Shown here one piece after another: positions 35,426 through 38,400 of a stretch of DNA of 64,000 bases. Numbering within the stretch: the first letter of the stretch is position 1; each line of letters begins with the position of its first letter. The stretch is from the NCBI RefSeq assembly GCF_016026235.1, contig NZ_CP065613.1; one strand, given 5' to 3'. The DNA comes from Escherichia coli. GTDB lineage: Bacteria; Pseudomonadota; Gammaproteobacteria; Enterobacterales; Enterobacteriaceae. Position numbers and translations under genes: made by a program. The notes under the pieces are model-generated. The model had not been told where the DNA came from, did no database searches, and was given only the letters and a program-made list of their open reading frames with translations.

Positions 35426-38400
35426 TCAACGAATACTGATGCCGGAAGCCGCTTTTTTGGTCACAATCACCGTACAGTCGGTGATATTGCCTGCCCCCTG
35501 ATTGCCTTTCTGGAAAATCTTAAACTCCAGAGTGACGCTACCACCACTAGGCATATCAATAACTGCACTGTAACTACCGGGAATGGCCCCTTTAGTTTCT
35601 CTGGATGCGATTAATACGCCGTTTTTGCGAACTTCAAAACCATAACCCGTGTATCGCGTGCCTCCTAGGTTATTTCCGCTCCCCGGATCGTCATACGCTA
35701 TACCGTTAAAAATAATGGGCGGAATAATAATCTGGCGGTCAAAGTTATGATCATCGCTGATGGTGACTGTAACCGTACCGTTTGGTGTTTCCGTGTTACC
35801 CCACGTACCGACTTTTTTCGGGAAGGCTTTTGATACAGCTTTAACGAAATCCCCTCTGACCTGGGTCGCCTCCAGCATGCCCTTAATCGTACAGTTCTGG
35901 TTAATCGTGACATTGTTGAGCGTTCCTGAGTTCGCATTCACACTACCACTGATATCCGCATTTTTAGCGGTCAGCTTTCCGTCTGATGTCAGGGAAAATA
36001 CCGGAGGACTGCCACCGCTGGTAATGGTGGGGCTGTCAGGCGCTTCAGGAACACGTCGTTCATGAATATCTGGTTGCCCTGCGCCACAAACATCGGCGTT
36101 TCATTCCCGTTTGCCGGGTCAATAAACGCGATACGGTTAGCGGCAACCAGAAACTGGCTCAGCTTGCCTTCCTCCGTGTCCTCCATGCTGAGGCCAATAC
36201 CCGCGACATAATGTTTGCCGTCTTTGGTCTGCTCAATTTTGACGCCCCACATGGCATTCCATTTATCGTTAGCGTCCTTCCACTCTTTCGAAAACTCATC
36301 CAGTCTGCTGGCGTTATCCTCCGTCAGATCAACTTTTTCCAGCAGCTCTTTACCGAGATGGGATTCGGTTATCTTGCCTTTGAAAAAATCCAGGTAACCT
36401 TCCGCATCATCGCTCGCCCGACCGACGGCCTCCACGAATGCCGATTTGCCAACGGTGTTCACACTGCGGATATAAAAGTAATAATCATGGCCCGGTTTGA
36501 TATTGATACTGGCGGCTATCCAGTACAGCCCCGTGCCAAGGTAGCGGGCTGTGGTTTCAACCTGCCTGATATCGGTAATCCGCGTTTCCGAGAACCAGAA
36601 CTCAAACTGTACCGTCGGATCATAAACCGCAAGATGCGGCGTGGCAGTTATCTGAAAATAGCCCGGCGTCAGCTCAATCCGCGACGGCGCTGCCGGGGCG
36701 GCAATCCGGAACGATACCGACGCCGGATCGCCCTGCTGTCCCCGGGCATTTACCGCCCGGACCGTCAGCGTGTAACGCCCCAGCGCCAGCTGCCTGAAGC
36801 GGTAAGTGGTTTCCGTCGTCCGGGCCGTGCTGACCAGCCGCTCACTGCCGTCATCGGCGGCCACGGTCAGGCGAAGCATAAAGCTCACACCCTTCACTAC
36901 CTTCGGCGTGTCCCAGCGCGCCAGCACCTGATACTCCCCACTGTCTGCGGTGACTTCTGCGGTCAGGTGCTGCACCGCTGGCGGCGTGACACCATTCACC
37001 GTGCCGCTCTGGTCGCCGTCAAAGTGCGCTCCGTTATCCACGATGGCCTCTTTTTCCGGCACATGCTGCACGGCAGTGATGGCATACGTGCCGTCGTCGT
37101 TCTCACGGATACTCACACAGCGGAACAGGCGCTGGCGCAGCGTCGGCAGCTTCAGCCCCCACACGCTGTATCCGGCAACGCCGTCAGGAACACGGCTCAC
37201 TTTCACCTTCACGCCGTCGGTGACGGACTGAACCTCCACGCTGACCGGATTGCCACTTCCGTCAACCAGGCTTATCAGCGTGGTACCGGAGGATGGCAGC
37301 GTGATTTCACGGTCGAGCGTCAGCGTCCGGGGCTGGCTGTTCACCGCCAGCACACGCCCGCCGGTGCTGATCCCCGCATAGTCATCATCACAGATTTCAA
37401 TGACATCGCCCGGTACATGGCGAAGCCCTTCTGCGCCCACGCTGAAGTCCACGGTCTGCGTCTCCAGCAGCTCCGTTTTAATCAGCCACAGCCCGGCGCG
37501 GTGTGCCTGCCCCCGGCTGGTACAGCCAAAGGCATCCATCTTCGTGACGTTACGACCGTAACGGACAATGGCCTGCGTATCCTCCACAAGCTCTGTCGCC
37601 GTCTCCCAGCCGTTATTCGGGTCAATCCAGTTCACCTCAACGGCATTATGACGGTCCTTCAGGGCGCTGAAGCTGTAGCGGAACGGCGCGCCATCATCCG
37701 GCATCACCACATTACTGCGGTTATAGGTCCACACCTTATCCGATGGCCGGTCCTGCACGAACGTCAGCGTCTGCCCGTTCCATACCGGCATACAGCGCAT
37801 CGCCGAGCAGAAATCACTGAGCACATCCCACGCCTTGCGCTGCGTGGTCAGGTACGCATTACAGGTGATACGCGGTTCCGTGCCACCAAAGCCATCCGGC
37901 ACCGACTGGTCGCAATTCTGGCCGATGACATACAGCGCCCATTTATCCACATCCGCCGCACCAAGACGTTTCCCCATGCCGTAGCGCGGATGGGTCAGCA
38001 TATCCCACAGACACCAGGCCATGTTGTTGCTGTATGCCGGTTGTAACGTTCCGTCCCAGATACCGCTGTATTGTCGCGTCTGCGGGTTATAGTTCGACGG
38101 CACCTGCAGAATGCGCCCGCGAAGATGATAATTACGGCTCACCTGCTGGCTGCCGAACTGCTCCGAATCCACCTGTACGCCGACCAGTGCCGTGTTCGGG
38201 TAGCACTGTTTCACATCGATGATTTCGGTGTATGACGACCAGAGCGTTTTGTTCTGCAGCTGGTCTGTGGTGCTGTCTGGCGTCATCCTGCGCATCCGGA
38301 TATTGAACGGGCGCGGCGGCAGGTTACCCACCACCACCGAGGCCAGATACTGTGAGGTGGTTTTGCCTTTAATGGTGATGTCTTTTTCCGTCACCCAGCC

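Follow-up and report, generated by a model that had tools for sequence, protein, structure and literature searches.

A one-base frameshift separates the receptor-binding end of tail tip gene J in a defective lambdoid prophage of Escherichia coli

The tail tip gene J of a defective lambdoid prophage in Escherichia coli is one frameshifted gene, not two. In the window, by which we mean the whole 64,000-nucleotide stretch of contig NZ_CP065613.1 (assembly GCF_016026235.1) that was analysed, the continuous frame of about 1130 codons expected of J is broken after codon 936, whereas it is unbroken in all ten copies of the same allele found elsewhere. The break arises where a run of five Cs has been shortened by one, which changes the coding strand from GCCCCCACC to GCCCCACC, and it removes the lower central fibre together with the entire receptor-binding domain. 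Either a decayed prophage has undergone an ordinary single-base frameshift in one of its genes, or the sequence record is wrong by one base; in both cases the change is of a kind already known.

The gene is read on the minus strand, and its parts are as follows.

35989..38835, minus strand: 5' part of J as now read, 948 codons plus stop
36036..36038, minus strand: TGA stop three codons before Thr937, the 5' limit of the open -1 frame
36029..36032, minus strand: frameshift site, where the coding strand has C4 (plus strand GGGG) and every relative has C5
35426..36028, minus strand: 3' part of J in the -1 frame, residues 937-1136 (200 codons) plus stop
35381..35405, minus strand: hairpin and T-run beyond the J stop, GGGCACCAGAAATGGTGCCTTTTTT; the phage 434 terminator is annotated at the same place

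Around the C-run the coding strand reads CTGACAGCCCCACCATTACC, in which the four Cs occupy positions 36032-36029, and the zero-frame codons across the break are CTG ACA GCC CCA CCA TTA CCA. Residues 1-936 of the open reading frame are native and comprise the hub domains, two FNIII/Ig domains, the helical shaft and the upper central fibre. The native frame is lost after Pro936; the last 12 of the 948 residues encoded at 38835..35989 are out of frame and aberrant, and 200 native residues are left untranslated. These are encoded in the -1 frame, which starts at 36028 (ACC ATT ACC AGC GGT GGC, encoding TITSGG...) and ends with the stop at 35428-35426. The first possible start codon in this frame is a GTG at 35941, 33 codons in, and a convincing ribosome-binding site is absent. 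The hairpin and T-run beyond the stop look like an intrinsic terminator.

The cause of the break was determined by aligning window positions 35400-38900 with phage mEp460_ev081 and with the prophage of E. coli H9Ecoli, both of which are about 99.7% identical. A first-pass annotation of the window had proposed that a single-nucleotide frameshift at 36020-36035 cuts the C-terminal receptor-binding part off a lambda-family J, and the alignment bears this out, with one missing C at 36029-36032, inside that interval. Two details of the proposal need to be amended. The base to be restored had been given as an A; the relatives all have C5, so the missing base is a C (either base gives proline). The separated part had been put at roughly 180 residues, and the count here is 200. 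With one C restored, a 3411-nt gene encoding 1136 amino acids is obtained, in good agreement with the rejoined J of about 1130 residues that had been anticipated, and this protein equals, residue for residue, the J called in GCA_900449985.1. Because a one-base insertion yields a J identical to one already called, the continuation of J in the -1 frame is not a matter of chance.

The restored protein is a complete J in its domain content. All six Pfam domains recovered from it (FNIII-A_GpJ, Phage-tail_3, Ig_J, Ig_J_second, Phage_Tail_Tip and Ig_GpJ_C) score above their curated cut-offs; Phage_Tail_Tip covers residues 846-972, a region that we take to be the central straight fibre (beta-prism), and Ig_GpJ_C, the Ig-like receptor-binding domain, covers residues 1001-1135. 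In a phmmer comparison with lambda J (PDB 8iyk_J), residues 1-1135 align to residues 1-1131 with a score of 2267 bits. The position of the gene in the tail block is also that of a lambda-family J, after K and I and before lom and stf, as judged from the window's open reading frames and annotated relatives. The series of domains from the hub to the Ig-like receptor-binding domain is the same in lambda gpJ (PDB 8iyk, 8xcj, 8xck).

Lambda gpJ differs from the window J in the receptor-binding domain, which is only about 47% identical to what we take to be the lambda C-terminus. Residues 937-1136 are identical to phage 434 J at 195 of 201 aligned positions (97%), and the receptor-binding domain is, as judged from its sequence, of the phage 434 type and not of the lambda type. 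The first-pass annotation had likened the downstream frame to lambda J, and this needs to be amended as regards the type of the receptor-binding domain. The C-terminal region of lambda J is built from a pair of FNIII domains, an alpha-helical shaft, the central straight fibre (a beta-prism) and a receptor-binding domain, and host specificity is set by this C-terminus; lambda carrying the tail fibre gene of phage 434 binds OmpC (PMC11101478). Because the C-terminus of the window J resembles that of phage 434 J, its receptor is, by analogy, probably OmpC rather than LamB.

Among known phages, phage 434 (J protein UMO75286.1, in OL657226.1) has the same order of I, J, lom and stf, and its J counts 1137 residues as compared with 1136 in the restored window J; 913 of 936 residues are identical in the N-terminal part, besides the 195 of 201 in the C-terminal part. 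The J of mEp460_ev081 is closer still (935/936 and 199/201, respectively), and near-identical J genes occur in many E. coli prophages. Unlike the J genes of these two phages, that of the window is broken after codon 936 and has one Gly codon fewer. The second difference is lineage-wide. Three bases are lost in frame from a GTG GTG GTG repeat near 35548, within the receptor-binding domain, which turns MPSGGGSV into MPSGGSV; the loss is common to all nine assemblies with the exact 1136-residue J and absent from phage 434 and mEp460_ev081.

The prophage in which J lies is a remnant; it is listed below with its lesions and the adjoining IS element.

29028..50905, minus strand: defective lambdoid prophage remnant of about 22 kb, integrated at the Qin site, the 5' end of ydfJ
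45262..45669, minus strand: major tail (tail-tube) gene V, broken, with a 135-residue product
49101..50257, minus strand: IS3-family element, with orfA (100 residues, 49955-50257) and orfB (272 residues, 49101-49919)
50905-52198: IS4-like ISEc60 element in rspB, inverted relative to the copy in FDAARGOS_943

Along the minus strand, the remnant holds a cut head gene (head'), the decoration protein gene, an FII-like head-closure gene, Z, U, the broken V, G, T, H, M, L, K, I, J, lom, stf, tfa and a pin-like invertase gene. The last of these, a pin/gin-like DNA invertase gene at 30359-30949 (plus strand), adjoins tfa and stf, as it does in mEp460_ev081. Terminase, portal, lysis, replication and immunity genes are all absent from 29028..50905; terminase and portal are counted as absent because the alignment with mEp460_ev081 begins only at phage coordinate 4597, which is inside the head gene. 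The IS3-family element cuts off the 5' end of the fused protease-capsid head gene (47346-49073), whose 3' three-quarters are kept, and beyond the element the early region is reduced to a 575-bp int'/xis/exo' scrap. This scrap is oriented as the structural genes are, which implies a rearrangement. V has lost 85 bp between 16-bp direct repeats (near 45296-45311), and its frame is shifted as a result; the product keeps about 124 native residues, and the Ig (Big_2) domain is left as a separate out-of-frame open reading frame (region 45262-45744).

These lesions are older than the change in J. The V deletion is common to GCA_900449985.1 and four draft assemblies (LSGI to LSGL), and the IS cut in the head gene is likewise present in the sister assemblies. 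Because the sister assemblies share both, the prophage was unable to make particles before the J change, and it was already dead by then. The flanking chromosome is that of E. coli: one flank runs from uxaB and ydeA past the mar genes as far as ydfJ, and the other takes in rspA, the ynf genes and dmsD; these flanks are about 99.95% identical to those of FDAARGOS_943, which has no prophage at the ydfJ site.

The C4 contraction is private to this sequence record. In 5,426 complete RefSeq E. coli genomes, the C4 version had no perfect match with either a 121-base or a 53-base query; matches numbered in the thousands, and the best of them all carried the extra base. The 53-base query, centred on the C-run and run with megablast, was meant to seed only C4 alleles, and C5 alleles were still seeded; with this query there was no match of at least 99% identity in the same 5,426 genomes. 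A 40-mer with C4 was not found in GTDB representative genomes, IMG/VR or JGI metagenomes, and the control C5 pattern was found five times in IMG/VR. At the protein level, neither the truncated J (948 residues) nor the possible downstream products (171 and 150 residues) had an exact look-up match among the called gene products of public assemblies (153 billion gene positions).

The intact allele, on the other hand, is readily found. The exact 1136-residue J occurs at ten places in nine NCBI assemblies, with C5 at every one of them, and eight of the ten copies are DNA-identical to the window J except for the missing base. Comparison with the same prophage in the closest strains, which had been put forward as a check on the frameshift, thus finds J intact there. 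GCA_900449985.1 matches window positions 22114-55669 (33.6 kb) with zero mismatches and one gap, which is the missing C, and the same C is the sole difference from GCA_902503985.1 over 15.6 kb. When the closest relatives are taken together, the window has zero private substitutions over 2214-55669 (about 53 kb), and the missing C of J is the only private indel in the 64 kb.

We slightly prefer the explanation that the missing C is a sequencing or assembly artefact. The strain would then carry a 434-type J of 1136 codons, and the record would lack one C of its C5 homopolymer; in the record, the frame would be left after Pro936 and closed by a stop 12 codons on, with the last 200 codons untranslated. 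The G/C homopolymer would have been undercalled during sequencing or assembly (long-read or finished assembly), and the strain's own J would be intact. The missing C is a singleton and lies within a G/C homopolymer, and zero private substitutions together with one private homopolymer indel are more in keeping with a slip in base calling than with mutations that have accumulated. The window passes unbroken through its IS elements, namely one IS3-family copy and one IS4-like element, the latter probably the source of most of the 33 places that match in the nearest complete genome, and in this region the short-read drafts of sister strains are broken up into no more than short contigs; together, these observations suggest that the assembly is a long-read or finished one. 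Homopolymer deletions are the usual residual error of such assemblies. It counts against an artefact that the window shows no other sign of poor assembly and has no second private indel in its 64 kb.

Somewhat short of an even chance is given to a real and very recent slipped-strand mutation from C5 to C4, which would represent neutral decay of J in a defective prophage. The cell would in that case make at most a 948-residue J fragment without the receptor-binding domain. Homopolymer slippage is the commonest spontaneous indel in living cells, and short homopolymers are natural indel hotspots. The prophage was dead in the common ancestor of the lineage, as the V deletion, the IS-cut head gene and the loss of early, lysis and packaging regions are common to the sister assemblies. 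Because it was already dead, J is under no selection to stay intact, so a genuine mutation is nearly as plausible as an artefact; the accurate look of the rest of the window is also in its favour. What weighs against a mutation is that the window and its closest sister are almost clonal (zero substitutions over 33.6 kb), so few real differences are expected, and that C4 occurs in no other public sequence searched, which includes complete E. coli genomes, GTDB representatives, IMG/VR, JGI metagenomes and called products.

It is highly improbable that the split is functional, either through a -1 ribosomal slip of tRNA-Pro on C-CCA that restores J or through the C-run acting as a phase-variable switch. 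If tRNA-Pro slipped by -1 from CCA to CCC, the exact native LTAP-TITSGG junction would result, but the zero frame (ACA GCC CCA CCA TTA) does not contain a slippery heptamer of the form X XXY YYZ. The 102 nt from the site onward (36036-35935, minus strand) fold somewhat better than shuffled sequences (z = -2.0; 9 of 200 shuffles at least as good); the fold is not specific to the C4 allele, because every intact J gene has this downstream sequence. As for phase variation, four to five Cs are far shorter than known contingency tracts, and the population shows a single state, with C4 in the window only. The two-frame state is found in no homologue among 5,426 E. coli genomes, IMG/VR, JGI metagenomes and GTDB representatives, the sister copies being all C5, and the prophage cannot use J anyway. 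The lambda-type slippery site GGGAAAG of the G/T pair was considered as an internal contrast and discarded, as the G/T junction of this phage type lacks it.

There is likewise only a very slim chance that C4 is real and that occasional -1 slippage at C-CCA, or reversion from C4 to C5, gives some full-length 434-type J, in which case lambdoid phages entering the cell could still draw a host-range module from the remnant. The least probable reading of all, that J is naturally split into two genes and the receptor-binding module is made as a protein of its own, has a seeming parallel in the record of phage PhiR63_1, which annotates J as two CDS, but that split lies near residue 660 and not 936, the downstream frame in the window has a TGA three codons before Thr937, no start until the GTG 33 codons in and no clear ribosome-binding site, and all close relatives have a single J open reading frame. 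Natural two-gene homologues, which would have spoken for such an arrangement, were looked for, and none is split at the J junction; the ten exact intact copies of J are each one open reading frame with C5. The PhiR63_1 record (PV340573.1, 1566-4977; phage induced from an ECOR strain), in which the two CDS of J overlap, was dropped as a precedent for a natural split on account of the position of its break. Even when they are added together, the functional and the two-gene readings are very improbable.

A frameshift in a tail fibre gene has a well-known counterpart in lambda, where the change in stf is reportedly of a single base, the rest of the gene being readable in another frame. The stf frameshift concerns a non-essential side fibre in a viable phage and is experimentally confirmed, whereas that of the window concerns the essential central fibre in a dead prophage and is known from the sequence record only. 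Between Ur-lambda and lambda PaPa, the stf frameshift stops the side fibre from being made and assembled, as described in a passage of PMC12617516 that cites Hendrix and Duda 1992. Cryptic lambdoid prophages at the ydfJ (Qin) site resemble the window remnant in their IS insertions, deletions and broken structural genes; the window remnant differs from them in that its tail gene block is nearly complete, with J intact in all sampled sister strains.

The J frameshift has little biological consequence, because the prophage was already defective, a point that the first-pass annotation had missed. If real, it is one more decay step in a prophage that is already without head, tail-tube, packaging, lysis and control functions; if an artefact, it amounts to a one-base correction to the genome record. 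For annotation, J should either be corrected or be marked as one frameshifted gene, a pseudogene, rather than be split into two proteins, and the label of its receptor-binding domain should read 434-type and, by analogy, probably OmpC-binding, rather than lambda LamB-type.

Several further observations were made in the course of the comparisons. A second candidate for a private homopolymer error, an A6 run at 15604-15609 that differs from the A7 of four comparators, was ruled out: A6 is also present in GCA_008180225.1 and is, for that reason, a real lineage variant. The run immediately precedes the ATG of a PTS EIIC gene, in the spacer that follows its ribosome-binding site; FDAARGOS_943, three assemblies with an identical EIIC protein and two lineage relatives from sequencing-run assemblies (L032 and L035) have A7 there. 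At 14241-17244 the window keeps an intact PTS EIIC gene, a GntR-type regulator gene and eamA, which FDAARGOS_943 has lost by an IS1 insertion and deletions, and FDAARGOS_943 has an extra IS5-family element near ydeI. Judging from the sequences, the near-identical backbones of the window and FDAARGOS_943 differ mainly through IS activity.

In GCA_045572815.1, J, I, K, L and the head gene are each chopped into several short open reading frames, a pattern that is the signature of an indel-error-rich assembly and contrasts with the single break in the window. GCA_014155105.1, a single contig of 4.68 Mb, carries two DNA-identical copies of the exact J about 200 kb apart and with different downstream genes, which suggests that two resident prophages have recently exchanged the J module.
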